Source of the DNA: a virus
Lineage: Duplodnaviria; Heunggongvirae; Uroviricota; Caudoviricetes
IMG/VR virus record: IMGVR_UViG_2850796239_000011
Span: 29,227-93,226 of that record
Length of the DNA stretch: 64,000 nt
Reading direction: 5' to 3' (one strand)
The notes below the pieces were generated by a model. The model was not told the DNA's origin and did no database searches. It worked only from the letters and a program-made list of their open reading frames with translations. Each line of letters begins with the position of its first letter. Within the stretch, counting starts at the first letter, position 1. The position numbers and the translations under genes are program-made. Shown here one piece after another: positions 6,657 through 52,008 of the stretch.

Positions 6657-7370
6657 TCACACCTGCCAGCCAGTAGCCTGAAACAGGCCCATTCTCGGGT
6701 GATACCAGCGGGTACCACGCTGAACGGCACCACACATCATGTGATGAAACGCCTTCAGAAACGGTTCCACAGCAACAATTTCACGACGTGCCAGTAATCC
6801 ATCTGGCGTCAAAAATTCATGAGTGTCTGTCGGGATGTTGTATGCATTTACAAGCGTGCGACATTTCGCATCTGACATACCGGTTTTTGCTTTCAGCTGG
6901 CGATATCCGGCATAGCCCTCACGAATGGTACCCTTTTTGATTTGCTCAACTGTTTCGGCAACATGGCTGACTTTTTCTTCCACCTGAGTGATCCGTTTCT
7001 GCTGGCGAACGGCTTCAAGAGCCATCGCGGCAACCATTTCGATTTCGCTCATTGGCTTACGGATCTGTTCTTCCAGTTCGCGCCAGCGATCTACCAGGCG
7101 AGCAGTGAATTCAGGACAGAGCTGTGCGACGACAATGATACTGTCGCGCTTACCTTGTTCTCCTTCAAACAGGTAATGCTCATATTGAACTTTAAAACCT
7201 AAGTTATTGATTCTTTCGGAAACCTCAATTTGAGGAGACCGGACAACGCCACCTTTGGCTAATGTTTCAATAGTGCGTTTCACATTGTCATGACGCTTAC
7301 CCACCAGTTCTGCGATCTCAACGCTGGTCATGGATGCTTTGTCGTTAAAAATTGCGGTGTTCACTGCCAT
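6657..7370 (-). CDS. Phage antirepressor (Rha/KilAC-type), 237 aa
   Basis: N-terminal block matches paralogue 44350..45018; start reassigned to ATG at 7370 with RBS TAAGGAG. Confidence 0.8.
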   Translation of the reverse strand: MAVNTAIFNDKASMTSVEIAELVGKRHDNVKRTIETLAKGGVVRSPQIEVSERINNLGFKVQYEHYLFEGEQGKRDSIIVVAQLCPEFTARLVDRWRELEEQIRKPMSEIEMVAAMALEAVRQQKRITQVEEKVSHVAETVEQIKKGTIREGYAGYRQLKAKTGMSDAKCRTLVNAYNIPTDTHEFLTPDGLLARREIVAVEPFLKAFHHMMCGAVQRGTRWYHPRMGLFQATGWQV

Positions 7371-7504
7371 CTCCTTACGGATAAATTCTTTTAAGATTCC
7401 GCACATTCGTACTTGTTGGTGCCGAACCTTCCTTCAGTTATCCTTTTGATCCCTATAAACAAAAGAACCAAAGGAGGTTCGACATGAAAGTTCAGGCCGT
7501 TGGT

Positions 7505-7837
7505 TTATTCTGGTTTCGCGATGCTATTCAGTATCATGAGTTCAAAAAGATTTTTACTGATGCAGATGTGCTCTCCGACAGTTACACCTAGTGGAAACAC
7601 GACGCTGAAAAATTGATTAAGCGTGTCGAAAGAAGCGGGCAACGAGTTATTAAAGTTGAAGCGGATACAACCGAGTTCATCACCTGGTGTACAAGCGAAG
7701 GCATTGGACTCAATGCCAAAGGTAGAATGCAGTTCGCATCCTTTAAGGCTTACCAACAACTTCTCAGCGAACGCTAATGTGATTGGGGCAATCGAAATGG
7801 TTGCCCCATCGTATTTAATAGTTATTTTTTCGCTCAT
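7505..7837 (-). CDS. Hypothetical protein in cII position (110 aa)
   Basis: Directly downstream of cro-like gene in the same operon; no recognisable cII motif. Confidence 0.4.
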   Translation of the reverse strand: MSEKITIKYDGATISIAPITLAFAEKLLVSLKGCELHSTFGIESNAFACTPGDELGCIRFNFNNSLPASFDTLNQFFSVVFPLGVTVGEHICISKNLFELMILNSIAKPE

Positions 7838-7847
7838 ATCACCACCA

Positions 7848-8057
7848 TCACTTCTCATCCTCTGTGTGCGCTAAGCTTGGATGTGTATATGGAATGTTCG
7901 GATCCAGATGGCAGAGAATGGCAACATCCTCCGGAACGCCCCGCGTTTTCCACTTTCCAACTCCCTGACTACCACGAGGCTTTCCTTTCTTTGGAAACCT
8001 GCGGCCAATAGCGGCATTGGTTTTAAATTGAGTTTTTAATATTTCATAAAGGGTCAT
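7848..8057 (-). CDS. Putative Cro-like early regulator (69 aa)
   Basis: Divergent from cI across an operator-like region; sequence not a canonical Cro. Confidence 0.4.
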   Translation of the reverse strand: MTLYEILKTQFKTNAAIGRRFPKKGKPRGSQGVGKWKTRGVPEDVAILCHLDPNIPYTHPSLAHTEDEK

Positions 8058-8168
8058 TCTTTAGCCTCACACCGGATACTCTGTTATCCAAGAATGTTAA
8101 ACATGAGAATCCAAAGTATCAAGATATTCTGTTACTTTAGTATCAGCAGCCATGAAAGGAGAAGAAAA
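8058..8168. promoter_or_regulatory. Divergent immunity control region (OR-like) of prophage 1
   Basis: Intergenic between cro-like and cI; palindrome GGATAC-N4-TTATCC at 8073..8088 and repeated AAGTATC motifs. Confidence 0.45.
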
Positions 8169-8825
8169 ATGAAATCTTTAGGTGAACGCCTAATCAACGC
8201 ACGACAAAAAGCTGGGTTAACGCAAGATGCGTTGGCTAAAAAAGCAGGGGTCACCAGAGTTGCAATCAGTAAAGCCGAGCAAGGCCTTACAAAAAGTTTC
8301 AACGGTGACACCCTTTTTAAAGTCGCAGCTGCACTGCAGTGTTCACCGCAGTGGCTTCAGAACGGAGATGAGAAAGGTAAGCATTGGGAAAATAATGTTA
8401 AGAGTTGCCCCCAGAGGGACACAGCACACTCTTACCCTGTAATTAACTGGGTTCAGGCAGGATTATTCACAACTGCAGGTGATGACTACAACATGTATGA
8501 TCAGGATAACTGGAGGCATTCTGTAAAATACGCTGGTGAGAGGGGGTTCTGGCTGGAAGTGCACGGAGACTCAATGACTTCGCCTATAGGAATAACATTT
8601 CCTGAAGGAATGTCGATCCTTGTCAACCCAGATAAAGAAGTTTTTTCAGGGTGTTACGTCATTGCCAGAAAAAAATCCACCAATGAAGCAACATTCAAAA
8701 AATATATTTCTGAAATGGGAAAGGCGTTTCTAAAGCCCCTTAATCCACAATACCCAATCATAGAAATGGACAATGATTGCGAAATAGTAGGCGTTGTGGT
8801 TGATGCCAGATGGGATATTTTCTGA
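8169..8825 (+). CDS. CI-type repressor (HTH + LexA/S24 peptidase domain)
   Basis: N-terminal HTH, C-terminal HGDSM serine and KK lysine motif; RBS AAAGGAG. Confidence 0.85.
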   Translation: MKSLGERLINARQKAGLTQDALAKKAGVTRVAISKAEQGLTKSFNGDTLFKVAAALQCSPQWLQNGDEKGKHWENNVKSCPQRDTAHSYPVINWVQAGLFTTAGDDYNMYDQDNWRHSVKYAGERGFWLEVHGDSMTSPIGITFPEGMSILVNPDKEVFSGCYVIARKKSTNEATFKKYISEMGKAFLKPLNPQYPIIEMDNDCEIVGVVVDARWDIF

Positions 8826-8852
8826 CCAGATACAAAATACAAAAAGAAACCT

Positions 8853-8886
8853 AAGTATCAAAAACACTTGCAACACCTTGATACTT
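8853..8886. promoter_or_regulatory. Operator-like inverted repeat AAGTATCAA-N16-TTGATACTT (OL-like)
   Basis: Perfect 9-bp arms read from sequence, immediately downstream of cI and upstream of 8928 gene. Confidence 0.45.
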
Positions 8887-8927
8887 TAGTTACCATAAAA
8901 CAAAGTTCGTAACTGAGGTATCATCTC

Positions 8928-9377
8928 ATGATCAATAAAGCTACAACTCTTGACTGTCTCGAAGAACTGAAAAACCTCGGCAGCCTCATTACACTAATAG
9001 CAAAAGCAACGGCAGATGCTACGCTCTCTAGCGATATAGAGTCATGCGCAGGACTGGCATGGGATATGACAAATAGCATATCCAGAAAGCTATCGTCAGC
9101 AATGCTTTTACAGAACAAAAATTCTGCAATCAACAACCGCCTTCGCACCCAACGCGAAGCCTGCGGCTTAACAACAGCCGAACTCGCCAGGCTGCTCGAT
9201 CTCGATGAAGAAATTATCATCCAGTGGGAGAGCGGAGAGTATGAACCAACTATCAGTATGCTTATCCCACTGGCAAATATTCTTGGCTGCGATCCGATGT
9301 GGCTGTTAACTGGTGAGGTTACTCCTCCGGAGCAACCAAAAAGTGAGGAGCAGCAACACCATGACGCATCTCAATAA
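8928..9377 (+). CDS. HTH-XRE domain protein in the N-gene position (149 aa)
   Basis: C-terminal XRE-type HTH (GLTTAELARLLDLDEEIIIQWESGEYEP); unknown N-terminal domain; RBS GAGG. Confidence 0.6.
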   Translation: MINKATTLDCLEELKNLGSLITLIAKATADATLSSDIESCAGLAWDMTNSISRKLSSAMLLQNKNSAINNRLRTQREACGLTTAELARLLDLDEEIIIQWESGEYEPTISMLIPLANILGCDPMWLLTGEVTPPEQPKSEEQQHHDASQ

Positions 9378-9579
9378 GTTTGCCCCTTATCTCGCGAAGC
9401 TCTTCTACGGAAGAACCAATACCAATGGTGACATAATCGCCGCTTCGGCCCTCAAGGTACATGCGAACATTTTTATCAATCATTGCGGAAACAGTCTCAA
9501 TATGAAAACACTTCTGAGACTCGCTATATAGCAGAACATATAAGTCAGCTGAGGAAGCCATGAAAAAGTTCGAAAACAT
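9319..9579 (-). CDS. Hypothetical protein (86 aa)
   Basis: ORF with RBS GGAGA 6 nt upstream; start overlaps divergent start of 9560 gene. Confidence 0.35.
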   Translation of the reverse strand: MFSNFFMASSADLYVLLYSESQKCFHIETVSAMIDKNVRMYLEGRSGDYVTIGIGSSVEELREIRGKLIEMRHGVAAPHFLVAPEE

Positions 9580-9925
9580 AACTGTTCTCCATGTTGATGA
9601 CTTTGATTATACAAACCCGGAACTTCTCCCGGAGGTTGTAAAGGCAATAGATGTTGCCGATATAGTGATTAGAGGAAAGAGAATTGTCAAAAACAGGCTC
9701 GCATGCACTTCAGGAGCAATGACAGAAACAACCTCACAGCAAGATAATTACGAAGGCATTTGTCTGGAGCCTGATTCATTTGCGGTAAATGTTTATCATT
9801 TATTGCATGCAACACAGGTATTACATATGTCCAGTAACCTCGTAACGAAAGCACTTGGCAGCGATATTCTGGACTTTGCATGTGAGTATTCAAAAGCTGC
9901 TGCCGAAAAAGAATTAGCGCAATAA
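9560..9925 (+). CDS. Hypothetical protein (121 aa)
   Basis: RBS AGGAAG; no recognised family. Confidence 0.5.
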   Translation: MKKFENITVLHVDDFDYTNPELLPEVVKAIDVADIVIRGKRIVKNRLACTSGAMTETTSQQDNYEGICLEPDSFAVNVYHLLHATQVLHMSSNLVTKALGSDILDFACEYSKAAAEKELAQ

Positions 9926-10120
9926 CAACAAATATGCCCTGAACGTTTATTGCGGTTTTATCACCGGGGATTGTTACAACCTTAATCCACAGGAGGCTTT
10001 ATTATGACTTTTATAAAGAATATGGCATCACACAAGACCGCCAGCCTTATTGCACAATACGGTGAAAATTACATGCATATTGCCTGCTTATTTCTGCGTA
10101 AAGCATACGGGAAATAACAA

Positions 10121-10480
10121 ATGACACATGAACCCATTAATACATATCGTCGCCGTATAGCTGTTGCGGCACTCCATCGAATAAAACGTAAAACAGGTGG
10201 TGATCTGCTTATTGTTGACCTTCTGGATGGGAACATTACGACCATAGAAATAACAGAACAGTTTATAAACCAGTTGCTGTTGCGCTTTGAAGGTATTACC
10301 CGTGGTGAATTGGGTCGAGTGGAGGGTGAAACAGAAATCCGAACTGCATACCAGAATGCTATCGGGATTAATCAACATACTGAATACCAGGCTGAAACCG
10401 GAAAGTTAATTATAGACAACCTTTTACAAGAGGTTATTGATTACGCGAAAGAAAAATATATCAGAGGAGGAATTAACTGA
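10121..10480 (+). CDS. Hypothetical protein (119 aa)
   Basis: Preceded by a 37-aa ORF (10004..10117) with RBS GGAGG; stop overlaps next start. Confidence 0.5.
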   Translation: MTHEPINTYRRRIAVAALHRIKRKTGGDLLIVDLLDGNITTIEITEQFINQLLLRFEGITRGELGRVEGETEIRTAYQNAIGINQHTEYQAETGKLIIDNLLQEVIDYAKEKYIRGGIN

Positions 10481-10567
10481 TGGCTAATTTATCCCCTGTA
10501 TCTGTTGTGCACGAAAAAGTGCAGTGAGGTGTACTGGCAATAGCGGACACTACCATTTGTTCTTTTT

Positions 10568-11386
10568 TTAAGCAGCCATCTGATGATATTTTTCCCTGAA
10601 GGCTGCCGGGGAGATATTCCCCAGACGAGAGTGACGACGCTGACGATTGTAGAAAATCTCAATGTATTCCCGTATTACTGAGATGGCTTCATCCCGGTTA
10701 TTAAAACGATAGTGGCTCAGGCTCTCATTTTTCAGCGTTCCCCAGAAGCTTTCCATCGGAGCGTTGTCGTAACAGTTACCTTTACGCGACATTGATGTTT
10801 TCAGACCAGACTGCTCCTGTATGACCCGGTAATCGTATGCGCAGTACTGTGAACCTCGATCAGAGTGGTGGATTAGCCCGGCAGGTGGGCGCTGGCTCCT
10901 GAGCGCCATAAACAGGGCTTTACCTGTCAGCTCTTTTGTCATGCGCTCTCCCATGGCGTAGCCGACAATTTCGCACGTATAAACATCTTTGATGCCAGCG
11001 AGGTACAACCATCCCTCCTGTGTGGCAACATACGTCAGGTCCGCCACCCAGACCTGATTTGGTGCTGTAGGAGCGAACGTCTGGTTCAGCAGATTTGGCG
11101 CAACTGGCAGATTGTGGTTCGGGTTCGTAGTCGCTCTGAACTTGCGTTTCTGCTTACAGCGTAGCCTTAGCTCCTTACGAAGACGTGCCAGTCGGTCACG
11201 ACCAACGATGATGCCATTCTCTGCCAGCTCCGTCTGGAGCCGCCGGGTTCCATATGTTTCGCGAGTGCGGATATGTGCCACCTTAATCTCCAGTTTTAGC
11301 CGCTCATCACTTTGTTTTCTGTCTGAGGGTTCATGCTGTACCCAGTTGTAATAACCGCTCCTGGATACACCAAATACCTGACACAT
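10568..11386 (-). CDS. IS600 transposase OrfB (DDE domain)
   Basis: 272 aa, IS3-family catalytic core. Confidence 0.9.
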   Translation of the reverse strand: MCQVFGVSRSGYYNWVQHEPSDRKQSDERLKLEIKVAHIRTRETYGTRRLQTELAENGIIVGRDRLARLRKELRLRCKQKRKFRATTNPNHNLPVAPNLLNQTFAPTAPNQVWVADLTYVATQEGWLYLAGIKDVYTCEIVGYAMGERMTKELTGKALFMALRSQRPPAGLIHHSDRGSQYCAYDYRVIQEQSGLKTSMSRKGNCYDNAPMESFWGTLKNESLSHYRFNNRDEAISVIREYIEIFYNRQRRHSRLGNISPAAFREKYHQMAA

Positions 11387-11421
11387 CGCTTCAATGGGAA
11401 ATTGTTGTCGCCATTGTTCGA

Positions 11422-11724
11422 TTAACGCGTATTTTTCAGCGACTCCTGTGCAAAATACGCTGTTGCTTTTTTTAATATATCTCGCTCAAGGCGAGCTTCA
11501 TTTAACGCCTTACGCAGTTGCAGAATTTCAGATTCCAGTTCAGCCACCGTGCGGGAACCAGGAGTACCGAGCCCTTTTCTGGCGGCGGTAACCCATTGTC
11601 CTAAAGTGCCTTCAGGAAGGGATAATCGGGAAGCGCCTTCACTGATCGAAAGTTGATTTTCAAGAACCGTTCTGACAGCTTCGGCTTTGAACTCTTTAGA
11701 GTAACGTTGGGTTTTTCTGCTCAT
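11422..11724 (-). CDS. IS600 OrfA (HTH)
   Basis: 100 aa, MSRKTQRYSKEFKAEAV..., leucine zipper. Confidence 0.9.
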   Translation of the reverse strand: MSRKTQRYSKEFKAEAVRTVLENQLSISEGASRLSLPEGTLGQWVTAARKGLGTPGSRTVAELESEILQLRKALNEARLERDILKKATAYFAQESLKNTR

Positions 11725-12296
11725 TATTAGCTCCTTCTGATGCCATTCTATTTCAGGAAGGAGTGTCCGTTAAACTCAGGCTACCTCACAGATCGTTATG
11801 ACAATTGAAAATGGCCAGGTAACAGATGTCTGCAAAGTCCGCGATGGAGAGCTGATTGCCAGCATGGATACATTCATACGGCTGGCAGAAAGAGCGGGGT
11901 ATCAGATAACAGCACCTGCTCAGGAGGAAACCAGTGACATTAACAGCAACACGAATTCCTGAGTGGGTCCACCAGCAGGCGTTGCTGGTCCTGCGGCGGT
12001 ACAGATGCCGACGTATATTCCCGCATCGGATACAGCGCAACGGATATCTCAGTCTGAAGGTTAACCGTCGCTGGCGGCTGTTATCGAAAGACGACGGCCG
12101 GAACTGGGAAGTAATGAGTCATGAACGTTATTCGGGGGAAATAAAGAAATGATCGACAACCGCACCGCCAGCGCCATTGACCAGGCATTACAGAAACATG
12201 ATACACCCGTCGGCCCGTTATTTTTTGTAACACGCCACGGAAGAACAAAAAAAATGCCTCACCCGAAAAACGGCAATTCGTTACCTGGCATTCTTT

Positions 12297-12542
12297 ATGA
12301 CCACCCGCGCTTTTGAACGTTCAGGATTCCGACAACGCCATCCTGACAAGCGTTTTATCTTCAACGGGAATGAGATATGGAAACGTGGAGAATCAACCAC
12401 AGAGTATACCCGCGCACACCAGCGAACAATCAGACGACTGCGCAGACTCATCGCCAGGAAACAGTATACAGAAAAATGGTTCAGAAAATATGACACATGG
12501 AGCGCCGGATATTACGAACTGATGGCAACAAAACCATTCTGA
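12297..12542 (+). CDS. Hypothetical small protein (81 aa)
   Basis: One of several small same-strand ORFs (also 11934..12152, 12149..12322). Confidence 0.3.
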   Translation: MTTRAFERSGFRQRHPDKRFIFNGNEIWKRGESTTEYTRAHQRTIRRLRRLIARKQYTEKWFRKYDTWSAGYYELMATKPF

Positions 12543-12602
12543 CGTAAACGAAATTAACCATGACGCAATTAAATAAGGCAAGCCGAATACATCAGGAGGA
12601 CC

Positions 12603-12791
12603 ATGAACATTTATTTCAGAATAGTTATATCACTGGCAATTATCGCATGTATTTACGGATTAATCGTTCCGGCCCTCATATCAATGAAGGATACGGTAGC
12701 AGTGATTTCTGGCTTTGCTCTGGCGTGTCTGACCCCGCCCTGCATTTATGCCATTTATAAGGGTCTTTCTTTCCCCGGGAGGGAAAAATGA
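12603..12791 (+). CDS. Small hydrophobic membrane protein (62 aa)
   Basis: Hydrophobic sequence; stop overlaps start of SPFH gene. Confidence 0.45.
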   Translation: MNIYFRIVISLAIIACIYGLIVPALISMKDTVAVISGFALACLTPPCIYAIYKGLSFPGREK

Positions 12792-13016
12792 AAAAAACAA
12801 TTGCGCTTGTTTTCGCGGTCAGTCTGGCTGTCTTCGGACTTGTAGGTTGCGATCGCGTTGAACCAGGTAATGTGGGTATCAAAGTCAACAAACTGGGCGA
12901 CGACAAAGGTGTCGGTGAAGTGGTCGGTGTTGGTCGCTACTGGACTGGCTGGAATACTGAAGTGAACCGCCCCGGGAATCCTGGAGACTAAACTTCCTGA
13001 GAAAGAGGTAAACAGG

Positions 13017-13342
13017 ATGACTAAAAATACTCGTTTTTCCCCGAAGTCCGTCAGAGGGCGATTCGTATGGTTCTGGAAAGTCAGGGCGAATATGACTCAC
13101 AGTGGGCGGCAATTTGTTCCATTGCCCCAAAGATTGGCTGTACACCGGAGACTCTGCGTGTCCGGGTACGCCAGCATGAGCGGGATACCGGAGGCGGTGA
13201 TGGCGGGCTCACCACCGCTGAACGTCAGCGTCTGAAAGAGCTGGAACGTGAAAATCGTGAACTGCGCCGCAGTAACGATATCCTTCGCCAGGCTTCCGCT
13301 TATTTTGCGAAGGCGGAGTTCGACCGCCTCTGGAAAAAATAA
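13017..13342 (+). pseudogene. IS629 orfA with frameshift in a C4 run
   Basis: Translation leaves the OrfA frame after MTKNTRFSP at CCCC 13039..13042 and resumes at 13067. Confidence 0.6.
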
Positions 13343-14229
13343 TGCCACTGCTGGATAAGCTGCGTGAGCAGTACGGGGTCGGACCGCTATGCAGCGAACT
13401 GCATATTGCCCCGTCAACGTATTACCACTGTCAGCAACAGCGACATCATCCGGATAAACGCAGTGCCCGTGCGCAGCGCGATGAGTGGCTGAAGAAAGAG
13501 ATACAGCGCGTATACGATGAAAATCACAAGGTATACGGTGTGCGTAAAGTCTGGCGTCAGTTGTTACGGGAAGGTATCAGAGTGGCCAGATGCACTGTGG
13601 CACGTCTCATGGCGGTTATGGGACTTGCCGGTGTTCTCCGGGGTAAAAAGGTCCGTACGACCATCAGCCGGAAAGCCGTTGCCGCAGGCGACCGCGTAAA
13701 CCGTCAGTTCGTGGCAGAACGACCTGACCAGCTGTGGGTGGCTGATTTTACTTACGTCAGCACATGGCAGGGCTTCGTCTATGTGGCGTTCATCATTGAT
13801 GTGTTTGCCGGATACATCGTGGGGTGGCGGGTCTCATCGTCCATGGACACGACATTCGTGCTGGATGCACTGGAGCAGGCGTTATGGGCCCGTCGACCGT
13901 CCGGCACGGTCCATCACAGTGATAAAGGTTCTCAGTATGTATCGCTGGGCTACACACAGCGGCTTAAGGAAGCCGGATTACTGGCATCAACAGGAAGTAC
14001 AGGCGACTCGTATGACAACGCGATGGCGGAGAGCATCAATGGTCTTTACAAAGCGGAGGTAATACACCGTAAGAGCTGGAAAAACCGTGCAGAAGTGGAA
14101 CTGGCCACACTCACGTGGGTGGACTGGTATAACAATCGACGATTGCTGGAAAGGCTGGGCCATACTCCTCCGGCAGAAGCAGAAAAAGCTTATTATGCTT
14201 CCATCGGAAACGATGATCTGGCAGCCTGA
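13342..14229 (+). CDS. IS629 transposase OrfB
   Basis: 295 aa, DDE transposase. Confidence 0.9.
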   Translation: MPLLDKLREQYGVGPLCSELHIAPSTYYHCQQQRHHPDKRSARAQRDEWLKKEIQRVYDENHKVYGVRKVWRQLLREGIRVARCTVARLMAVMGLAGVLRGKKVRTTISRKAVAAGDRVNRQFVAERPDQLWVADFTYVSTWQGFVYVAFIIDVFAGYIVGWRVSSSMDTTFVLDALEQALWARRPSGTVHHSDKGSQYVSLGYTQRLKEAGLLASTGSTGDSYDNAMAESINGLYKAEVIHRKSWKNRAEVELATLTWVDWYNNRRLLERLGHTPPAEAEKAYYASIGNDDLAA

Positions 14230-14965
14230 GTTCACAGATAAAACACTCTCCAGGAAAACCGGGGCGGTTCAGAAGTTTACATTTTCCCGACCTTCAAGCA
14301 AATGAAGACCTACGATGAACCGTTCAGTTTCCAGATGAGTGACGGCACAACCATCGGCTATCACATCGGCGTGGCCTACAAAGTTGATCCATCCAAAGTT
14401 ACCACAGTCTTTCAGACTTACCGCAAAGGCGTGGATGACATTACCGACACTGACCTGCGCCAGAAAATTGCCGACGCACTCAATCGGCTGGCCAGCAAAA
14501 TGACCACTGACAAATTTATCGACGGCGGCAAGTCTGAACTACTGGATGCCGCACTTAAAGACATTCAGGAAGAGATGACACCCATCGGCATTCAGGTAAT
14601 GAGCCTCTCTTATGTAGGTAAACCGGAATACCCTCCAACCGTTATCGACAGCATTAACGCCAAAGTCACGGCAAACCAGAAAACCCTGCAGCGCGAACAG
14701 GAAGTCAAGCAACGTGAAGCGGAGGCCAACATGCTACGTGCGGAAGCTGCCGGACAGGCTGATGCCATTCGAACAAAAGCCCAGGCAGAAGCCGATGCCA
14801 TTCGTTTACGCGGCGAAGCTCTACGCCAGAACCCAGGCGTCATGGAGCTGGAAGCCATCAACAAGTGGAACGGTACACTGCCGCAATACATGACCAGTGG
14901 TGCCAATACACCATTTATCCAGATTAAATAACTTATATGCCCGGCAGGCCGCCGGGCTAAGGGAA

Positions 14966-15295
14966 ATGCAGATGAACACCCAGAATACTCAACCGCAAAT
15001 AATGAACTATGACCCGAATCTGACGTCATGCGGACGCATGGCAAAACAAACCGTTCGATTAACTTTCGGACTATGGGAATACCGCGAAACATTCGAAGTT
15101 ACTGTCGGCGGCAATCTGACCGGACTGGATGTTATCAGTTGCGCTATTGAAAGCCTGTACGCAACGCTGCCTTATGAAGAAGTCGAGGATGAGCGCACAG
15201 GGGAAACAGATATCATGGCCACCATTAATATTGGCGAACTGATATGTCAGGATGAAGACCTGTCCGGAGAGCTCTGGCTTGCCGGGATGCTTTGA
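14966..15295 (+). CDS. Hypothetical protein, 3' end interrupted by IS600
   Basis: Stop codon is the first TGA of the IS600 end; frame continues after the IS to ~16608. Confidence 0.45.
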   Translation: MQMNTQNTQPQIMNYDPNLTSCGRMAKQTVRLTFGLWEYRETFEVTVGGNLTGLDVISCAIESLYATLPYEEVEDERTGETDIMATINIGELICQDEDLSGELWLAGML

Positions 15296-15356
15296 GGTAG
15301 CCTGAGTTTAACGGACACTCCTTCCTGAAATAGAATGGCATCAGAAGGAGCTAATA

Positions 15357-15659
15357 ATGAGCAGAAAAACCCAACGTTACTCTAAAGAGTTCAAAGCCGA
15401 AGCTGTCAGAACGGTTCTTGAAAATTAACTTTCGATCAGTGAAGGCGCTTCCCGATTATCCCTTCCTGAAGGCACTTTAGGACAATGGGTTACCGCCGCC
15501 AGAAAAGGGCTCGGTACTCCTGGTTCCCGCACGGTGGCTGAACTGGAATCTGAAATTCTGCAACTGCGTAAGGCGTTAAATGAAGCTCGCCTTGAGCGAG
15601 ATATATTAAAAAAAGCAACAGCGTATTTTGCACAGGAGTCGCTGAAAAATACGCGTTAA
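15357..15659 (+). pseudogene. IS600 orfA with nonsense codon (Gln24 to stop)
   Basis: GAA AAT TAA at 15420..15428 versus CAA in copies 1 and 3. Confidence 0.8.
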
Positions 15660-15694
15660 TCGAACAATGGCGACAACAATTTCCCATTGAAGCG

Positions 15695-16513
15695 ATGTGT
15701 CAGGTATTTGGTGTATCCAGGAGCGGTTATTACAACTGGGTACAGCATGAACCCTCAGACAGAAAACAAAGTGATGAGCGGCTAAAACTGGAGATTAAGG
15801 TGGCACATATCCGCACTCGCGAAACATATGGAACCCGGCGGCTCCAGACGGAGCTGGCAGAGAATGGCATCATCGTTGGTCGTGACCGACTGGCACGTCT
15901 TCGTAAGGAGCTAAGGCTACGCTGTAAGCAGAAACGCAAGTTCAGAGCGACTACGAACTCGAACCACAATCTGCCAGTTGCGCCAAATCTGCTGAACCAG
16001 ACGTTCGCTCCTACAGCACCAAATCAGGTCTGGGTGGCGGACCTGACGTATGTTGCCACACAGGAGGGATGGTTGTACCTCGCTGGCATCAAAGATGTTT
16101 ATACGTGCGAAATTGTCGGCTACGCCATGGGAGAGCGCATGACAAAAGAGCTGACAGGTAAAGCCCTGTTTATGGCGCTCAGGAGCCAGCGCCCACCTGC
16201 CGGGCTAATCCACCACTCTGATCGAGGTTCACAGTACTGCGCATACGATTACCGGGTCATACAGGAGCAGTTTGGTCTGAAAACATCAATGTCGCGTAAA
16301 GGTAACTGTTACGACAACGCTCCGATGGAAAGCTTCTGGGGAACGCTGAAAAATGAGAGCCTGAGCCACTATCGTTTTAATAACCGGGATGAAGCCATCT
16401 CAGTAATACGGGAATACATTGAGATTTTCTACAATCGTCAGCGTCGTCACTCTCGTCTGGGGAATATCTCCCCGGCAGCCTTCAGGGAAAAATATCATCA
16501 GATGGCTGCTTAA
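15695..16513 (+). CDS. IS600 transposase OrfB
   Basis: 272 aa, near-identical to other copies. Confidence 0.9.
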   Translation: MCQVFGVSRSGYYNWVQHEPSDRKQSDERLKLEIKVAHIRTRETYGTRRLQTELAENGIIVGRDRLARLRKELRLRCKQKRKFRATTNSNHNLPVAPNLLNQTFAPTAPNQVWVADLTYVATQEGWLYLAGIKDVYTCEIVGYAMGERMTKELTGKALFMALRSQRPPAGLIHHSDRGSQYCAYDYRVIQEQFGLKTSMSRKGNCYDNAPMESFWGTLKNESLSHYRFNNRDEAISVIREYIEIFYNRQRRHSRLGNISPAAFREKYHQMAA

Positions 16514-16641
16514 AAAAAGAACAAATGGTAGTGTCCGCTATTGCCAGTACACCTCACTTATCTCAGCAGAAATTATCAGTATTGAACCCGCTACAAACAT
16601 ACGGCTCTGAAGTTCTCACTATTCAGAGAGCAGGAGAAAAA

Positions 16642-16884
16642 ATGTTCGCTTTGATTAATCAGGGACAACTGTATACCGACAGTGCCGGTTACCCGGTAAA
16701 AATTATTCGCTGCATAAACAACACTGTGTTGTACAGAAGAATGGATGGGCGAACACAGTCAGTAAAAATAAACGATTTCAATGAACTGTTTGAACGGATC
16801 GATCACCAGGAATACCGACAAATTCTGGCAGAAACAGAGCAGGAAGCTCATCTGAAAAAATTACGGGCCATGAAAAGGAAGTAA
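16642..16884 (+). CDS. Hypothetical phage protein (80 aa)
   Basis: RBS AGGAG; followed by a 48-aa ORF at 16888..17034. Confidence 0.45.
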   Translation: MFALINQGQLYTDSAGYPVKIIRCINNTVLYRRMDGRTQSVKINDFNELFERIDHQEYRQILAETEQEAHLKKLRAMKRK

Positions 16885-17042
16885 AGAATGAATAAAGCGT
16901 TTGAGCTATGGGTACGCCAGCGTTACGGCAATCGCTATGACCTGACGCGAGATGTTGACGGTTTCTACTGTCGTGAAATTGTGAAACGAATGTTTGAAGT
17001 GTGGTGCCACTGCCGTGGGCTGAGTGTTGTGTGAGGTAATGC

Positions 17043-17279
17043 ATGGGCAATGTGATTCAACTGGCTCCCAATGAATGGGTTTGTGAAAGCGTTCTTATCG
17101 CAATTACCGGGCTCAAACCAGGCACAATTCTCCGAGCCCGGAAAGAATGCTGGATGGTAGGAAGAGAGTATATTCACGTATCACCAGACGGTAATCCAAA
17201 GCCATCCAGCGAATGTATGTATAACAGAAAAGCAATAGATGCCTGGGTCTCTTCAATGAAAAACAAACAACCTGGGTGA
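17043..17279 (+). CDS. Excisionase-like DNA-binding protein
   Basis: 78 aa, immediately upstream of integrase; recalled excisionase-like pattern. Confidence 0.65.
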   Translation: MGNVIQLAPNEWVCESVLIAITGLKPGTILRARKECWMVGREYIHVSPDGNPKPSSECMYNRKAIDAWVSSMKNKQPG

Positions 17280-17334
17280 TTTAATGCCATGAAGTATGTA
17301 AGCTCGTATCGCTCTTGGGCGTCTGGAGGTATCA

Positions 17335-18648
17335 ATGGATAAAGTCAAATATCCAACAGGCGTCGAAAACCACGGTGGCACATTACGCATCTGGTTTAAT
17401 TTTAAAGGTAAACGTGTCAGGGAAAATCTTGGTGTCCCTGACACTGCCAAGAACAGGAAGATCGCCGGAGAGCTGCGGACATCTGTATGTTTTGCCATTC
17501 GTACAGGAAATTTTGATTATGCTGCGCAGTTCCCTGACTCTCCTAACCTCAAGGCTTTTGGGGTAAATAAAAAAGAAATTACGGTGAAAGAACTTGAAGA
17601 AAAATGGCTGGATCTGAAACGAATGGAAATCTCTGCAAATGCATTCAATCGCTATGAATCCATTGCAAGGATGATGGTTCCGAAGATTGGTGGCAACCGA
17701 CTGGTATCAGCAGTGACCAAAGAGGAATTGCTGTATATCAGGAAAGATTTGCTGACCGGATACCAAAATCCAACAAAAGGTAAAGCTCCAGTAAAAGGAC
17801 GAAGCGTTGTCACAGTAAATTATTACATGACAACAATCGCTGGAATGTTTCAGTTTGCTGCAGATCACGGTTACATAGAAGCAAATCCCTTCGAGGGAAT
17901 TAAGCCTCTTAAAAGAGCCAGGGCAGAACCAGATCCGCTAACTCGTGACGAATTTATTCGCCTGATAGATGCTTGCCGGCATCAGCAGACAAAAAACCTG
18001 TGGTCATTGGCTGTGTACACAGGAATGCGTCATGGTGAACTGGTCTCCCTGGCCTGGGAAGATATCGATCTGAAAGCAGGAACAATTACTATCAGGCGCA
18101 ATTATACGAAACTCGGTGAGTTCACTCTACCTAAAACTGAAGCAAGTACAAACAGGGTTGTGCATCTTATCCAGCCCGCTATCAGTGTCCTGAAAAATCA
18201 GGCTGAAATGACAAGACTGGGTAAGCAGCACAACATCAAGGTTCAACTACGTGAATATGGACGTTCAGTAAATCATGAATGTACTTTCGTATTTAACCCC
18301 CAGGTGGTTAGAAAAAGCAAACAGGTAGGTTTTATCTACAAGGTAGATTCCATTGGCGACTCATGGGAAACAGCCATTAAACGTGCAGGCATCAGGCATC
18401 GAAAGGCATACCAGTCACGACACACTTATGCGTGCTGGTCATTATCTGCCGGAGCAAATCCAAGCTTCATTGCCAGCCAGATGGGGCATGCAAGTGCCCA
18501 GATGGTGTTCAATGTATACGGAGCATGGATGACTGACAGCAATGCAGAACAGATCGCAATGCTGAATCAGAAGCTGGCAGATTATGTCCCAATGATGTCC
18601 CATGGTCACCAAAGTGACACAAGAGGCTTATTAAAATCAGTGAGTTAG
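17335..18648 (+). CDS. Tyrosine integrase (437 aa)
   Basis: Arm-binding N-terminus and C-terminal catalytic region with R...HxxR...Y context. Confidence 0.9.
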   Translation: MDKVKYPTGVENHGGTLRIWFNFKGKRVRENLGVPDTAKNRKIAGELRTSVCFAIRTGNFDYAAQFPDSPNLKAFGVNKKEITVKELEEKWLDLKRMEISANAFNRYESIARMMVPKIGGNRLVSAVTKEELLYIRKDLLTGYQNPTKGKAPVKGRSVVTVNYYMTTIAGMFQFAADHGYIEANPFEGIKPLKRARAEPDPLTRDEFIRLIDACRHQQTKNLWSLAVYTGMRHGELVSLAWEDIDLKAGTITIRRNYTKLGEFTLPKTEASTNRVVHLIQPAISVLKNQAEMTRLGKQHNIKVQLREYGRSVNHECTFVFNPQVVRKSKQVGFIYKVDSIGDSWETAIKRAGIRHRKAYQSRHTYACWSLSAGANPSFIASQMGHASAQMVFNVYGAWMTDSNAEQIAMLNQKLADYVPMMSHGHQSDTRGLLKSVS

Positions 18649-18751
18649 CTTTTAATACCCGTCATGTTAACTGTTAATGAGGGCATTGAGTCGGGGGCTG
18701 GCAGCATACTGCGCAAGCACAGTGGCAGCCACATTCTGCACGTTATGCCTC

Positions 18752-19984
18752 CTAGAGTTTCACACTGATATCCGACACATCCAGAACCGGAATCTCATCT
18801 ATCCCGAAAGTGACAGCCGTTGTCCATGACGAACCGTCACGGCTCACAGTAAGGCCCAGAATATCAATATGTTCCGGATCGGTTTTGTAAATGCCGGCAT
18901 AGTAGCGCCCGGCAGAGACAACAGAGGCAACCCTTGCCCGCAGACCACCATCTGTACCATTAAATGCGTCCAGCACGGATTGCTGTACCTGTCGGGTAAT
19001 ATCTGAAGGCAGGTAGTCACTTTTTTTCAGCGTCACACTGACATGCAGACTGACGGGTTTGAGTGTCTGCCAGCTGATCACGTATTCAGGATACGGCGGA
19101 TCGTACTCCTTATCTGCAACAGTGAACGTTGTGTTGCCATTCATATCAATACCCGGCGGAGCCTTACGCCAGATGGCCGCCGCGATATCTGCCGGGCTGC
19201 CGCCGTACACGCCAACATAAAGCGAACCGGGTGTTAATGGATACTGACTGACTCCGGCTTTTTGTTCTGTTTTTTTCGGATTATGGGTGACGTAAACATC
19301 CACCACGTTTTCTACCGTGGAGAGTATTTCACCCCGGATGGCTTCCAGAATATTCCGGGCATTACGGGCAACTGAATTACGTCGGCGGTTTTCAAAGTCC
19401 GCACGGGTTTCCTCATCGCTGCCCGGCACACCGGCACTGGCGTTAGTGACACCTGACCAGCCAGGTATTGCCTTATAAATTTTATTCAGCGTCCCCACAG
19501 GACAGCCGACGGGGCCGGTGGACAAATTCAGAAATACCGCATCAACCTGCCCTGATGCGCCGATAGTGACGTCTGACTGACTGACATACTTATAACCGGC
19601 CTCATCCTGCGCCATACTGCCCGCCGGGATCAGCGTGCCAACCAGCCCGGTACAGGTCGCTGTTACTGTCGTACCTGTGGCCCCGCGGCGCTCCAGGAAA
19701 TAAATCCTGCCTATTGCATCCTGAAAGCGACCACTGGAAAAGTCAGGGTTGATCTGGTTAACGATATACAGCAACTGGTCGTTTTTATCCGCAATAATGG
19801 CGCTTTCGCTGGATGCAAGTTGTCCCTGCGGACTGCTCAGACTGGTACTCATGGCCCCGCCCAGCGCCGCCGAAAAATCAGCAAGCCTGCCGCTCAGAAT
19901 ATCCGCTTCATCCGGCACATTCAGCCCGCGATCCGAAATCTGTACAGCGGGCACTGCGGTAGAAAAAGATTTATTTTCACTCAT
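18752..19984 (-). CDS. Baseplate J-like protein (Mu gp47 family)
   Basis: 410 aa; gene order sheath-tube-tape measure-baseplate. Confidence 0.7.
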   Translation of the reverse strand: MSENKSFSTAVPAVQISDRGLNVPDEADILSGRLADFSAALGGAMSTSLSSPQGQLASSESAIIADKNDQLLYIVNQINPDFSSGRFQDAIGRIYFLERRGATGTTVTATCTGLVGTLIPAGSMAQDEAGYKYVSQSDVTIGASGQVDAVFLNLSTGPVGCPVGTLNKIYKAIPGWSGVTNASAGVPGSDEETRADFENRRRNSVARNARNILEAIRGEILSTVENVVDVYVTHNPKKTEQKAGVSQYPLTPGSLYVGVYGGSPADIAAAIWRKAPPGIDMNGNTTFTVADKEYDPPYPEYVISWQTLKPVSLHVSVTLKKSDYLPSDITRQVQQSVLDAFNGTDGGLRARVASVVSAGRYYAGIYKTDPEHIDILGLTVSRDGSSWTTAVTFGIDEIPVLDVSDISVKL

Positions 19985-37359: not shown

Positions 37360-37491
37360 ACTTAGCCCATCATTTTTCTATACACCTCTGCGGCCTGCTC
37401 AGGCGTTAATTTGGTAATTTCTGTTCTGACTGGTCCTCCGTCAGCGCCTGAGGTGTACTGGCAATAGCGGACACTACCATTTGTTCTTTTT

Positions 37492-38310
37492 TTAAGCAGC
37501 CATCTGATGATATTTTTCCCTGAAGGCTGCCGGGGAGATATTCCCCAGACGAGAGTGACGACGCTGACGATTGTAGAAAATCTCAATGTATTCCCGTATT
37601 ACTGAGATGGCTTCATCCCGGTTATTAAAACGATAGTGGCTCAGGCTCTCATTTTTCAGCGTTCCCCAGAAGCTTTCCATCGGAGCGTTGTCGTAACAGT
37701 TACCTTTACGCGACATTGATGTTTTCAGACCAAACTGCTCCTGTATGACCCGGTAATCGTATGCGCAGTACTGTGAACCTCGATCAGAGTGGTGGATTAG
37801 CCCGGCAGGTGGGCGCTGGCTCCTGAGCGCCATAAACAGGGCTTTACCTGTCAGCTCTTTTGTCATGCGCTCTCCCATGGCGTAGCCGACAATTTCGCAC
37901 GTATAAACATCTTTGATGCCAGCGAGGTACAACCATCCCTCCTGTGTGGCAACATACGTCAGGTCCGCCACCCAGACCTGATTTGGTGCTGTAGGAGCGA
38001 ACGTCTGGTTCAGCAGATTTGGCGCAACTGGCAGATTGTGGTTCGGGTTCGTAGTCGCTCTGAACTTGCGTTTCTGCTTACAGCGTAGCCTTAGCTCCTT
38101 ACGAAGACGTGCCAGTCGGTCACGACCAACGATGATGCCATTCTCTGCCAGCTCCGTCTGGAGCCGCCGGGTTCCATATGTTTCGCGAGTGCGGATATGT
38201 GCCACCTTAATCTCCAGTTTTAGCCGCTCATCACTTTGTTTTCTGTCTGAGGGTTCATGCTGTACCCAGTTGTAATAACCGCTCCTGGATACACCAAATA
38301 CCTGACACAT
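37492..38310 (-). CDS. IS600 transposase OrfB
   Basis: 272 aa. Confidence 0.9.
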   Translation of the reverse strand: MCQVFGVSRSGYYNWVQHEPSDRKQSDERLKLEIKVAHIRTRETYGTRRLQTELAENGIIVGRDRLARLRKELRLRCKQKRKFRATTNPNHNLPVAPNLLNQTFAPTAPNQVWVADLTYVATQEGWLYLAGIKDVYTCEIVGYAMGERMTKELTGKALFMALRSQRPPAGLIHHSDRGSQYCAYDYRVIQEQFGLKTSMSRKGNCYDNAPMESFWGTLKNESLSHYRFNNRDEAISVIREYIEIFYNRQRRHSRLGNISPAAFREKYHQMAA

Positions 38311-38345
38311 CGCTTCAATGGGAAATTGTTGTCGCCATTGTTCGA

Positions 38346-38648
38346 TTAACGCGTATTTTTCAGCGACTCCTGTGCAAAATACGCTGTTGCTTTTTTTAAT
38401 ATATCTCGCTCAAGGCGAGCTTCATTTAACGCCTTACGCAGTTGCAGAATTTCAGATTCCAGTTCAGCCACCGTGCGGGAACCAGGAGTACCGAGCCCTT
38501 TTCTGGCGGCGGTAACCCATTGTCCTAAAGTGCCTTCAGGAAGGGATAATCGGGAAGCGCCTTCACTGATCGAAAGTTGATTTTCAAGAACCGTTCTGAC
38601 AGCTTCGGCTTTGAACTCTTTAGAGTAACGTTGGGTTTTTCTGCTCAT
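38346..38648 (-). CDS. IS600 OrfA
   Basis: 100 aa, intact. Confidence 0.9.
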   Translation of the reverse strand: MSRKTQRYSKEFKAEAVRTVLENQLSISEGASRLSLPEGTLGQWVTAARKGLGTPGSRTVAELESEILQLRKALNEARLERDILKKATAYFAQESLKNTR

Positions 38649-39284
38649 TATTAGCTCCTTCTGATGCCATTCTATTTCAGGAAGGAGTGTCCGTTAAACT
38701 CAGGCTACCTCAGCCAGTCACTTCATTTTTGACGTTGTCTTTAAACGCCTGAACAGAAACATGACGCCCAAGCAACTCAAGGTTTTTAACCTTATCAGGC
38801 CATTTGATTTTCTTCAGAAGTGCGGCGCTATCTGCGGATACCATCTCCACGACATCCATTCCTGATAGCGTTGTGCGCCATACCTTAGGCCAGTCTTTAA
38901 TGGGCTTTAGCTCACCGTTTTGCAGGAGAATGTCGAGCACATCCATCTGGTCGATTTCAACCAATCTACGAAGAACATAGGCGGCATCTATACCCGTCTG
39001 CTCAACGCGGGCGGATTTAAGTTCAGCAACGAATTTTTGAACATTAACATTTGCTAATAATCGAGATGCCTGCTCATTGGCGGTCTTCTCGCTGTAGCCC
39101 GCCCTGATAGCTGCCTGTGTGCCGTTCAGATCTTTCAGGTACTCACGGGCAAACAGCTCTTGTTTGTCGGTGAGCTTTGCCATTATTTGTGCTCCGTTTA
39201 TCCGTTAAAAGGGATATCAGTTAAGTTATCCCGTGTAGGGTATAAGCCATTATCAAGCCCACCCGTAGATGGGCTTTGTAATGG

Positions 39285-51225: not shown

Positions 51226-51288
51226 ATAACCCAAGTTATAAAAGATAGCAATAACCTTTATTATTTTACTTTGGATAACCGTAGTTAT
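51226..51288. promoter_or_regulatory. OR operators ATAAC-N4-GTTAT (two sites)
   Basis: ATAACCCAAGTTAT at 51226..51239 and ATAACCGTAGTTAT at 51275..51288 between cro and cI. Confidence 0.5.
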
Positions 51289-51300
51289 AGATTTGTGGAT

Positions 51301-52008
51301 ATGAAAACATTCGCAGAAAGACTAAATGCAGCCATGAGATCGGCAGGGGTGTCGCAATCACAGCTTGCGGACATGGTTGGAATATCTCAGCCAGCCATAC
51401 AGAAGATGTCATCCGGTAAAACAAACGGATCTCGCAAGATGGTTGAGTTAGCTAATGCTTTAAAAGTACGCCCTGAATGGCTTAGTTCTGGTATTGGTGA
51501 AATGAGGGATGGTACACATGAAGAACCATCCAATATCCGTGAGTCATCTTTAAAAGCTGTGGTATGGGAAGACATTAAAAAAAACGATGACGAGTTTGTC
51601 GCATTGCCTCTTCTTAACGTTTCGCTTTCGGCTGGAAGCGGTAGCTGCGAGATAGAAGAATCATCAGAGTTCTCTTTGGTTTTCAGAAAGTACTATCTGA
51701 AAAAGATGGGGGTAACTGAAAGTTCTGCCAAGCTGGTAAGGGTAACAGGTCAAAGCATGGAACCAACTCTTCACGATGGCGATGTTGTTGGTGTTAACAC
51801 ACAAGATACCACCATCAGAGATGGTAAAACCTACGCTATTTGCCAGTCTGATTTGTTGCGAGTAAAAACATTAATCGCCACTCCTACATCGGTGATAATC
51901 AGATCAATAAATCGCGAAGAGTACCCGGATGAAGTAATGGATAGAGATGAATTTCATAAAACCGTAAGGATTATTGGCAGAGTATTCTGGTCATCGCATA
52001 GCTGGTAA
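51301..52008 (+). CDS. CI-type repressor (HTH + S24 peptidase)
   Basis: HTH at N-terminus, GQSMEP serine motif. Confidence 0.85.
   Translation: MKTFAERLNAAMRSAGVSQSQLADMVGISQPAIQKMSSGKTNGSRKMVELANALKVRPEWLSSGIGEMRDGTHEEPSNIRESSLKAVVWEDIKKNDDEFVALPLLNVSLSAGSGSCEIEESSEFSLVFRKYYLKKMGVTESSAKLVRVTGQSMEPTLHDGDVVGVNTQDTTIRDGKTYAICQSDLLRVKTLIATPTSVIIRSINREEYPDEVMDRDEFHKTVRIIGRVFWSSHSW

Follow-up and report, generated by a model that had tools for sequence, protein, structure and literature searches.

What was interrupted at positions 12603 to 14931 of this Caudoviricetes DNA, and what would the intact genes have done for the phage that carried them? Within the window, by which we mean the whole 64,000-nt stretch analysed, a small membrane protein gene is followed by a gene for an SPFH (band 7) lipoprotein that is split by an insertion sequence. 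The reading that we favour, with a probability of roughly 0.8, is that the pair constitutes a two-gene accessory membrane module in the non-essential early-left region of a phiP27-like lambdoid prophage of a Shigella boydii-type host, and that it was killed by a simple IS629-type insertion.

The two parts of the SPFH gene lie on the plus strand. The 5' fragment (12788..12962) comprises codons 1-58 and the first base of codon 59 and holds the signal peptide with the lipobox. The 3' fragment (14276..14931) takes in the remaining two bases of codon 59, all codons up to 276, and the stop. It encodes the bulk of the SPFH domain, then a helix some 65 residues long that is rich in A/E repeats, and a conserved C-terminal motif, K-W-N-G-x-L-P...P-F. 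Between them, on the same strand, is an IS3-family element of the IS629 type (12963..14271, 1309 bp) with terminal inverted repeats (TGAACCGCCCCGG...) and rve/DDE domains in its orfB. It is bounded by two copies of a 4-bp target-site duplication, GAAG, at 12959..12962 and 14272..14275, and the insertion point is after base 1 of codon 59. Joining 12788-12962 to 14276-14931, with the 4-bp duplication removed, restores an open reading frame of 276 aa that has no interruption; when 3 bp are removed instead of 4, the SPFH frame is full of stops. A frameshift was looked for elsewhere in the reconstructed gene, and none was found. The first-pass annotation, which had placed the insertion after codon ~58 between GAAG direct repeats with the frame continuing across it, is therefore confirmed. 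Along its entire length, the product matches P0001, a Shigella boydii protein annotated 'SPFH/Band 7/PHB domain protein', with 100% identity, so the reconstruction is not a chance reading frame. A domain search of the reconstructed protein, set beforehand as the test on which the SPFH assignment could fail, returned Pfam Band_7/SPFH (PF01145) at 108.3 bits (E=6.1e-31) against a curated gathering cut-off of 23.6 bits, with residues 23-209 aligned to profile positions 2-176 of 176; the assignment was not refuted.

In its present form, the reading frame of the gene enters the IS and ends there as a 67-aa stub (12788-12991). The 3' fragment is called by gene callers as a 209-aa ORF starting at an internal ATG (14302) and has been deposited as 'Putative SPFH domain protein' of Shigella boydii ATCC 9905. 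The SPFH gene in the window cannot work, because the N-terminal stub is devoid of the SPFH domain and the C-terminal ORF is devoid of the signal peptide. It is an ordinary IS-made pseudogene of an already catalogued family, both fragments of which were already deposited and annotated. For the window itself this carries little weight, being one more such pseudogene in an IS-rich Shigella-type genome.

Judging by its sequence and by the literature, the element is taken to be of the IS629 type. It shares 99.5% identity with 1310-bp elements that carry the annotation 'IS3 family transposase, programmed frameshift'. Its orfA starts at 13017 and is frameshifted in this copy at codon 9 by a 1-bp deletion at 13038 in a run of five C (C-run at 13034-13038), unless this is a homopolymer assembly error; orfB occupies 13342-14229. 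The loss of one C of that run makes the copy 1 bp shorter than IS629 elsewhere, from which it otherwise shows no difference of substance. IS629 duplications are 3-4 bp long, and in O157:H7 62% of the IS629 copies are located within prophages (PMC3271280); the insertion described here resembles other prophage insertions of IS629 in E. coli O157 and Shigella in its length of about 1310 bp and in a duplication of 3-4 bp. The inactivation by IS629 claimed in the first reading is supported, the element being of the IS629 type within the IS3 family and the duplication 4 bp long. The same IS junction, found by exact look-up of the 67-aa fusion ORF, is shared by 14 or more contigs, S. boydii ATCC 9905 among them, and some of the contigs with this junction do not carry the flanking IS600 copies. 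When one genome was taken for each species and searched for exact copies of the 35-bp IS/gene junction, there was no match.

The pair is located in the early-left region, between a CI-like repressor gene (8094-8825) and xis/int (int at 17335-18648). The same layout is observed in phiP27 and, in annotated E. coli genomes, in prophages at the yecE/yecN site, which bears out the view of the pair as prophage-borne. An intact copy is present at the same prophage position in 216 of the 5,426 complete E. coli genomes (about 4%). Downstream lies a DUF5406 gene (14965..15295, plus strand; Pfam DUF5406, E=1.9e-19), the usual 3' neighbour in E. coli prophages. It is cut to 107 aa by an IS600 copy (15293-16556, CTT duplication) and has 123 aa in loci L003 and L004. 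An inversion between the two inverted IS600 copies around the region was considered and rejected: each copy has its own 3-bp duplication (CTG and CTT), and the gene order is collinear with uninterrupted relatives. No sigma-70-like promoter is predicted directly 5' of the pair, and expression in the lysogen is therefore not supported. A terminator of its own was likewise rejected: the hairpin 3' of the SPFH gene (about 14941-14958) has no T-run.

The first gene of the pair, which encodes a 62-aa protein, is intact (12603..12791, plus strand) and has an AGGAGG before it, at 12594-12599. Its stop codon, TGA, shares bases with the SPFH start codon at 12788 (ATGA, 12788-12791), and a Shine-Dalgarno-like GGGAGGG is found immediately 5' of the SPFH start. 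These features confirm the translational coupling of a 62-aa hydrophobic ORF to a lipoprotein with the lipobox LVGC that had been noticed initially. The partner is predicted to be a two-transmembrane hairpin with cytoplasmic N- and C-termini and a short periplasmic loop containing P23-A-L-I-S; in this predicted topology the conserved P-x-L-[IFV]-S motif is at the periplasmic end of helix 1. The protein falls into PHROG 1130, 'membrane protein' (E=1.9e-23), and gave no Pfam match at E<=0.01 and no NCBIfam match. An identical protein occurs on hundreds of Enterobacteriaceae contigs. Homologous small ORFs precede the SPFH genes of phiP27, Cyrano, N4-type VEc25, Paxi, phiBt, and Ruegeria V10. Among 43 diverse viral SPFH representatives from IMG/VR, which share <80% identity, 35 have a small membrane ORF directly against the SPFH start, in most cases with P-x-L-[IFV]-S. 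A hydrophobic upstream partner is missing at the SPFH homologues of Seunavirus, Kolesnikvirus, and Enterococcus phages. When the ORFs on either side of the genes at about 40 diverse viral loci were compared all against all by BLAST, no recurring family emerged as a third conserved neighbour.

The N-terminus of the SPFH ORF is MKKTIALVFAVSLAVFGLVGC followed by DR, with the lipobox L-V-G-C at residues 18-21. The segment MKKTIALVFAVSLAVFGLVG-C21 combines a basic n-region, a hydrophobic h-region, and the lipobox (pattern [LVI][ASTVI][GAS]C), as expected of a lipoprotein signal; lipidation itself is predicted. Of the 120 listed homologues, 102 carry the lipobox; in these, the two residues after the Cys are D-R in 95 and D-N in 3 (Asp at +2 in 98/102). 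With Asp at +2 after the lipobox, the protein is predicted to be a lipoprotein tethered to the inner membrane from the periplasmic side, with its SPFH domain toward the periplasm. Retention in the inner membrane is expected because Asp22 stands at +2 of Cys21, in line with the established E. coli +2 rule of Lol avoidance: cleavage by signal peptidase II would yield an acylated Cys21, and Asp22 would hold the protein in the outer leaflet of that membrane. The lipobox is kept in nine of ten distant phage homologues. At +2, more distant phage homologues carry S, E, N, or T, and therefore the membrane location may differ there. In the SSU5-like clade the lipobox Cys is replaced by Tyr; these proteins would still possess an inner-membrane signal anchor.

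The AlphaFold model of the SPFH protein, a monomer with a mean pLDDT of 76 in which the last 30 residues are of low confidence, shows the alpha/beta SPFH fold, with strands at 21-95 and helices at 97-162, and after it a long helix at 179-243. Foldseek produced full-length matches to prohibitin, HflK/C, erlin, stomatin, and flotillin (E=1e-14 to 1e-8), the best being full-length prohibitin, HflK/HflC, and erlin at E of about 1e-13. Judging by this model, the protein probably assembles via its long helix into a membrane ring or cage, as prohibitin, HflK/C, and erlin do. These three proteins have the same outward-facing topology. Such a cage would surround the small partner and possibly also host inner-membrane proteins.

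The pair had been regarded as unusual prophage cargo, and this turned out to be wrong. The SPFH protein is a member of PHROG 200 (E=7e-115), and its partner has a catalogued PHROG as well. Using tblastn, homologues were detected in 689 of 50,697 phage records, among them phiP27, N4, P1-like, SSU5-like, Kayvirus, and jumbo phages, and two scans of IMG/VR confirmed 364 and 541 viral stretches that encode relatives. Lytic phages that infect marine, soil, and plant bacteria have the family too. Mentions of SPFH genes in phages go back to 2006 (PMC1524935, PMC7150955, PMC8540360, PMC13239085), and their presence is still called unexplained by a 2026 paper. We found no experiments on any phage SPFH protein; the papers found on SPFH in connection with prophages, phage-encoded proteins, superinfection exclusion, or anti-phage activity gave only annotations and speculation. 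No paper describing or testing the pairing of SPFH with a small partner was found either.

What, then, might the module do? We tentatively propose, at less than even odds, that the P-x-L-[IFV]-S hairpin and the outward-facing SPFH lipoprotein make up a self-contained module that is passed on as one unit among phages not related to one another (lambdoid, N4-like, and large marine phages, and the P1-like and SSU5-like phage-plasmids), a phage counterpart of the SPFH-NfeD and HflKC cages with an undescribed function, such as blocking the entry of rival DNA or capturing a host inner-membrane machine. As for the role, superinfection exclusion is our leading guess, a possible but doubtful one: the pair would change the inner membrane, either at an early stage of infection or in the lysogen, and would thereby keep a second phage from bringing in its DNA. 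This is favoured by N4-type VEc25, where the pair lies directly 3' of the gp17 superinfection-exclusion gene (PF17420, E=1e-55), and by PhiSH19, where the SPFH gene adjoins an annotated superinfection-exclusion gene; however, such adjacency was seen in only two phage groups. The missing predicted promoter also weighs against exclusion, because exclusion by a prophage would need expression in the lysogen. The pair is not filed as a known anti-phage defence system, since the SPFH protein, the partner, and the DUF5406 neighbour gave no match at E<=0.01 to the PADLOC-DB v2 defence models. A different role, which we consider unlikely, follows from the resemblance to HflK/C: the phage ring would act on FtsH from the periplasmic side and alter how quickly membrane and regulatory proteins of phage or host are turned over (CII/CIII in lambdoid phages), thereby biasing the choice between lysis and lysogeny or protecting phage membrane proteins. 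HflC and HflK are the sole named NCBIfam and PDB sequence matches (E=5.6e-6 and 5e-4) and are among the best structural ones, the predicted periplasm-facing topology is the same, and the idea has already been raised for Bruynoghevirus (PMC8540360). Yet the scores, 25.4 bits for HflC (TIGR01932, cut-off 134.4) and 23.3 bits for HflK (TIGR01933, cut-off 159.4), fall far short of equivalog level, and the module has one SPFH gene with a 62-aa hairpin neighbour instead of a K/C paralogue pair. Moreover, the module is common in strictly lytic phages that make no lysogeny choice (N4-like, Kayvirus, jumbo), and no link to FtsH was seen.

Kayvirus suggests another function, in which an SPFH scaffold would order or steady the cytoplasmic membrane for holin, endolysin, or secreted enzymes and thus tune the timing of lysis. 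There, mbpV (one transmembrane helix) and mbpS (SPFH) are located between the endolysin gene lysK and the transglycosylase gene tgl, and a role in Sec-dependent export has been proposed for the proteins (PMC7150955). We regard this as quite improbable for the present pair: the Kayvirus proteins are only about 25% identical and have a partner of a different kind, the lambdoid prophage pair sits in the early-left accessory region distant from the lysis cassette, and the VEc25 pair adjoins gp17 with no annotated lysis gene beside it. A factor of lysogenic conversion directed at the animal host seems very improbable. By analogy with the prophage-encoded HflK/C-like protein PM0222 of Pasteurella multocida, the lipoprotein would be displayed on the surface or on vesicles and trigger TLR1/2; in that organism, deletion of the prophage SPFH gene is reported to abolish virulence, and the protein to signal via TLR1/2 (PMC9872710). 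Against this, Asp at +2 predicts inner-membrane retention and not surface exposure, the family extends to the lytic phages of marine, soil, and plant bacteria mentioned above, and the gene is dispensable in the pathogenic lineage considered here.

SPFH proteins form one of the larger families of phage proteins, and for these the analysis has a modest but real general message: a tiny, conserved membrane protein accompanies them, their predicted orientation is toward the periplasm, and they resemble the cage-forming prohibitin and HflK/C. A widespread phage membrane module is now open to a concrete and cheap experiment.

The pair may be compared with several known systems. Exclusion proteins, of which N4 gp17 is the immediate upstream neighbour in VEc25, are similar to it in being early or lysogen-expressed envelope proteins of lytic and temperate phages, but show no kinship in sequence or fold. 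Other membrane or lipoprotein superinfection-exclusion proteins are T4 Imm and Sp, T5 Llp, phi80 Cor, and TP-J34 Ltp. With SPFH-NfeD operons, e.g., QmcA-YbbJ (PDB 8z5g), it shares a translationally coupled membrane partner gene directly 5' of the SPFH gene; unlike theirs, the phage partner has about 60 aa and no NfeD/OB-fold domain. Membership of this operon class was therefore ruled out and the analogy kept. QmcA is among the fold matches of the phage SPFH protein. Its SPFH domain is cytoplasmic, whereas that of the phage protein is predicted to be periplasmic. HflK/HflC of the E. coli complex with FtsH (PDB 7vhp, 7vhq, 7wi3, 9cz2) have, as is predicted also for the phage protein, an N-terminal membrane anchor, a periplasmic SPFH domain, and an SPFH fold followed by a long helix. 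They are its best sequence-level PDB match, yet at about 17% identity, and are anchored by a transmembrane helix whereas a lipid is predicted for the phage protein. Within PHROG 200, the members include phiP27 L05 ('putative serine protease', a label unsupported by the Pfam, NCBIfam, and PHROG results for the SPFH protein), gp20 of N4-type VEc25, and the 'stomatin-like integral membrane protein' of Cyrano. L05 is 95% identical to the reconstructed protein and occupies the same place between the repressor and xis/int. These relatives share with it the length, the lipobox, the FPTF.Q and FQ.YR.G motifs, and the C-terminal KW.G.LP; unlike them, the gene described here is split by an IS.

The SPFH lipoprotein gene studied here is inactivated by an insertion sequence, and its small partner gene is intact. 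The partner, a 62-aa ORF on the plus strand (12603-12791) with AGGAGG upstream, encodes a hydrophobic product with two segments of transmembrane length, and its TGA stop codon overlaps the ATG of the SPFH gene at 12788 (ATGA). The SPFH ORF begins with MKKTIALVFAVSLAVFGLVGC-DR, a standard lipoprotein signal peptide with the lipobox LVGC. Joining 12788-12962 to 14276-14931, i.e., removing the insertion sequence and one GAAG, restores a 276-aa ORF with no other defect; if only three repeat bases are removed, the frame is full of stops. A protein deposited for Shigella boydii (P0001) matches the reconstruction end to end with 100% identity, so that frame and 4-bp duplication are both settled. The domain search on which the first-pass annotation had staked its SPFH call was run on the reconstructed protein and returned Pfam Band_7/SPFH with E=6.1e-31, the whole profile being covered. 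That call is right, and so is the anatomy the annotation had described: a partner gene overlapping an SPFH lipoprotein gene with lipobox LVGC, an insertion flanked by GAAG, and a frame resuming beyond it.

The interrupting element (12963-14271, 1309 bp) belongs to the IS3 family, has the terminal inverted repeats TGAACCGCCCCGG, and is bordered by GAAG on either side. It is 99.5% identical to 1310-bp elements annotated by NCBI as IS3-family transposases with programmed frameshift, and its orfB carries rve/DDE domains. We take it to be IS629, with the ends of which it agrees. The label fits the literature, since IS629 makes 3-4 bp duplications and is found mostly in prophages (PMC3271280). The C-run at 13034-13038 has four C in the window copy vs. 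five in the 1310-bp copies, which shifts orfA at codon 9. Five C are also present where other assemblies carry this insertion; the loss is therefore either particular to the strain, leaving a defective copy, or an assembly error in the homopolymer.

CP026875.1 matches the window from 6788 to 18991, over 12.2 kb, with 100% identity. At least 14 contigs carry the 67-aa fusion ORF that the insertion made, and the database entry for the 209-aa downstream fragment reads 'Putative SPFH domain protein [Shigella boydii ATCC 9905]'. Two assemblies with the fusion ORF carry the IS629-type insertion and lack both IS600 copies flanking the region, so this insertion preceded the IS600 copies and became fixed in a lineage. 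The three IS600 copies are each 1264 bp long. The first (10525-11788, minus strand, duplication CTG) cuts a 71-aa 'Rem'-like gene; the second (15293-16556, plus strand, duplication CTT) truncates a DUF5406 gene to 107 aa and provides its stop codon; the third lies at ~37.4-38.7 kb (about 37400-38760, minus strand, duplication GGC). They were considered as inversion ends, and this was rejected: each has its own 3-bp duplication and is thus a simple insertion. In one IMG/VR locus with a 100% identical SPFH protein (L018), an ORF leads directly into the beginning of the 62-aa partner gene, and its first residues are the same as those of the window ORF 16419-16610, which spans the IS600 right end. 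This suggests a separate IS600 insertion immediately upstream of an intact pair in another lineage.

The pair is on the same strand as a CI-like repressor gene (8094-8825) and lies between a ParE-like ORF and DUF5406-DUF4222-xis-int (int 17335-18648). Annotated E. coli prophages that are integrated beside yecN/cmoA show this gene order too, as does phage phiP27, in which L05 is the SPFH gene and the small partner ORF exists but lacks an annotation. Such an order marks the early-left region of a lambdoid prophage, which is non-essential, and justifies the earlier term 'prophage-borne'. The ParE-like toxin domain (Pfam, E=7e-18) is in a 72-aa ORF at 11934-12152. Directly upstream of the pair (12149-12542), two ORFs of 55 and 81 aa are the pieces of one gene, which is whole (~130 aa) in E. 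coli AUSMDU00002545 and carries the annotation 'frameshifted' in FDAARGOS_944, so a second pseudogene adjoins the SPFH one. A second prophage (18649-62583) abuts the integrase of the first. It encodes Baseplate_J (18752-19984, minus strand), DnaB (47919-49370, minus strand), a CI-like repressor (51271-52008), RecT (56287-57072) and a lambda-type integrase (61513-62583), and has no SPFH pair. The position of the Baseplate_J gene at the very boundary suggests that tail-fibre genes were lost.

The first-pass view of the pair as unusual prophage cargo did not survive database comparison. The SPFH protein belongs to the phage protein family PHROG 200 (E=7e-115) and the partner to PHROG 1130. A tblastn search found homologues in 689 phage records, with hosts including Staphylococcus, Pseudomonas, Enterococcus, Erwinia, Klebsiella, Escherichia, Burkholderia, and Caulobacter, and also in haloarchaeal viruses. 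Close relatives are found in phiP27 (95%), the P1-like phage RCS47 (92%), the 108-kb phage Cyrano (78%), which we take to be SSU5-like, and the N4-type phage VEc25 (62%). In two scans of IMG/VR, 364 and 541 viral stretches were confirmed to encode relatives, and the two-gene unit is intact in 216 of 5,426 complete E. coli genomes. The window locus is ordinary: a pseudogene made by an IS, in a phage family that is widespread and already catalogued, and both of its fragments had been deposited before. Phage SPFH genes have appeared in papers since 2006 (PMC1524935, PMC7150955, PMC8540360, PMC13239085), and their purpose is still described as unclear in a paper of 2026.

What the analysis adds is the conservation of the partner. 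In phiP27, Cyrano, VEc25, Stenotrophomonas phage Paxi, Burkholderia phage phiBt-TXDOH, and Ruegeria phage V10, an ORF of 49-77 aa with two hydrophobic segments lies just upstream, its end touching or overlapping the SPFH start. All six align on an invariant proline: TM1, P-x-L-[IFV]-S, a short polar loop, TM2, and a basic tail. At the same position Caulobacter phage RBC8 has a 111-aa three-helix ORF, and Pseudomonas phage SA22 an unannotated 72-aa one-helix ORF. We reduced 160 IMG/VR loci to 43 SPFH representatives sharing <80% identity; an ORF of ≤130 aa with at least one hydrophobic segment, ending between 40 nt upstream and 30 nt downstream of the SPFH start, accompanies 35, most with the same motif. 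Since no other gene recurs upstream or downstream across the 43, the pair is a conserved unit, at least in phages of Proteobacteria. Homologues in Seunavirus, Kolesnikvirus, and Enterococcus phages lack the hydrophobic upstream ORF, and Kayvirus has a different partner, the one-helix MbpV. Some IMG/VR loci among L104-L183 have a second partner-like small ORF with P-x-L-I-S just upstream or downstream of the pair, suggesting local duplication.

The lipobox is kept in 102 of the 120 closest homologues, 98 of which have Asp at +2, and by the E. coli sorting rule a lipoprotein with Asp at this position stays in the inner membrane. The charge distribution of the partner fits a topology with both ends cytoplasmic and the P-x-L-I-S loop periplasmic. 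On these grounds, the SPFH protein would be lipid-anchored in the inner membrane, its domain on the periplasmic face beside the partner loop. The two proteins may associate. Throughout one clade (~75% identical, contigs ~110 kb, presumably SSU5-like), Tyr replaces the lipobox Cys; in these proteins the signal anchor should stay uncleaved, with membrane and orientation unchanged. In P0054, P0055, P0059, P0060, and P0103-P0117, several Klebsiella and E. coli homologues included, the place of the Cys is taken by Tyr, Trp, or Phe, all of which can arise from a Cys codon by a single nucleotide change. With replacements in several homologues and a whole clade, lipidation is not essential to the family.

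As to the role of the pair, superinfection exclusion is our guess, with a probability of about 0.3. We favor it because an incoming phage would meet the module on its way through the inner membrane, and because the module is common to lytic and temperate phages, lies directly 3′ of the N4-type gp17 exclusion gene, and adjoins an annotated exclusion gene in PhiSH19. Promoter prediction, which gave none for expression of the pair in a lysogen, counts against it. No PADLOC model matched either protein. The main rival, an HflK/C-like action on FtsH, appears somewhat less probable than exclusion. A PDB sequence search with the SPFH protein finds HflK at E=5e-4, and in NCBIfam the only matches are to HflC and HflK, weak and far below threshold. 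Less likely still are a helper of lysis or secretion and a lipoprotein directed at the host. The function of so conserved a pair should be easy to test experimentally.

The AlphaFold model of the SPFH protein (mean pLDDT 76) has an SPFH alpha/beta domain followed by a single helix of ~65 residues, with low confidence over the C-terminal 30 residues. Foldseek against PDB places it, with full-length matches, among prohibitin, HflK/HflC, erlin, stomatin, and flotillin (E from 4e-14 downwards). The top three, prohibitin, HflK/HflC, and erlin, have an N-terminal anchor and the SPFH domain on the non-cytoplasmic side of the membrane. All full-length SPFH proteins known from solved structures form rings or cages, and by analogy the phage protein may do so as well.
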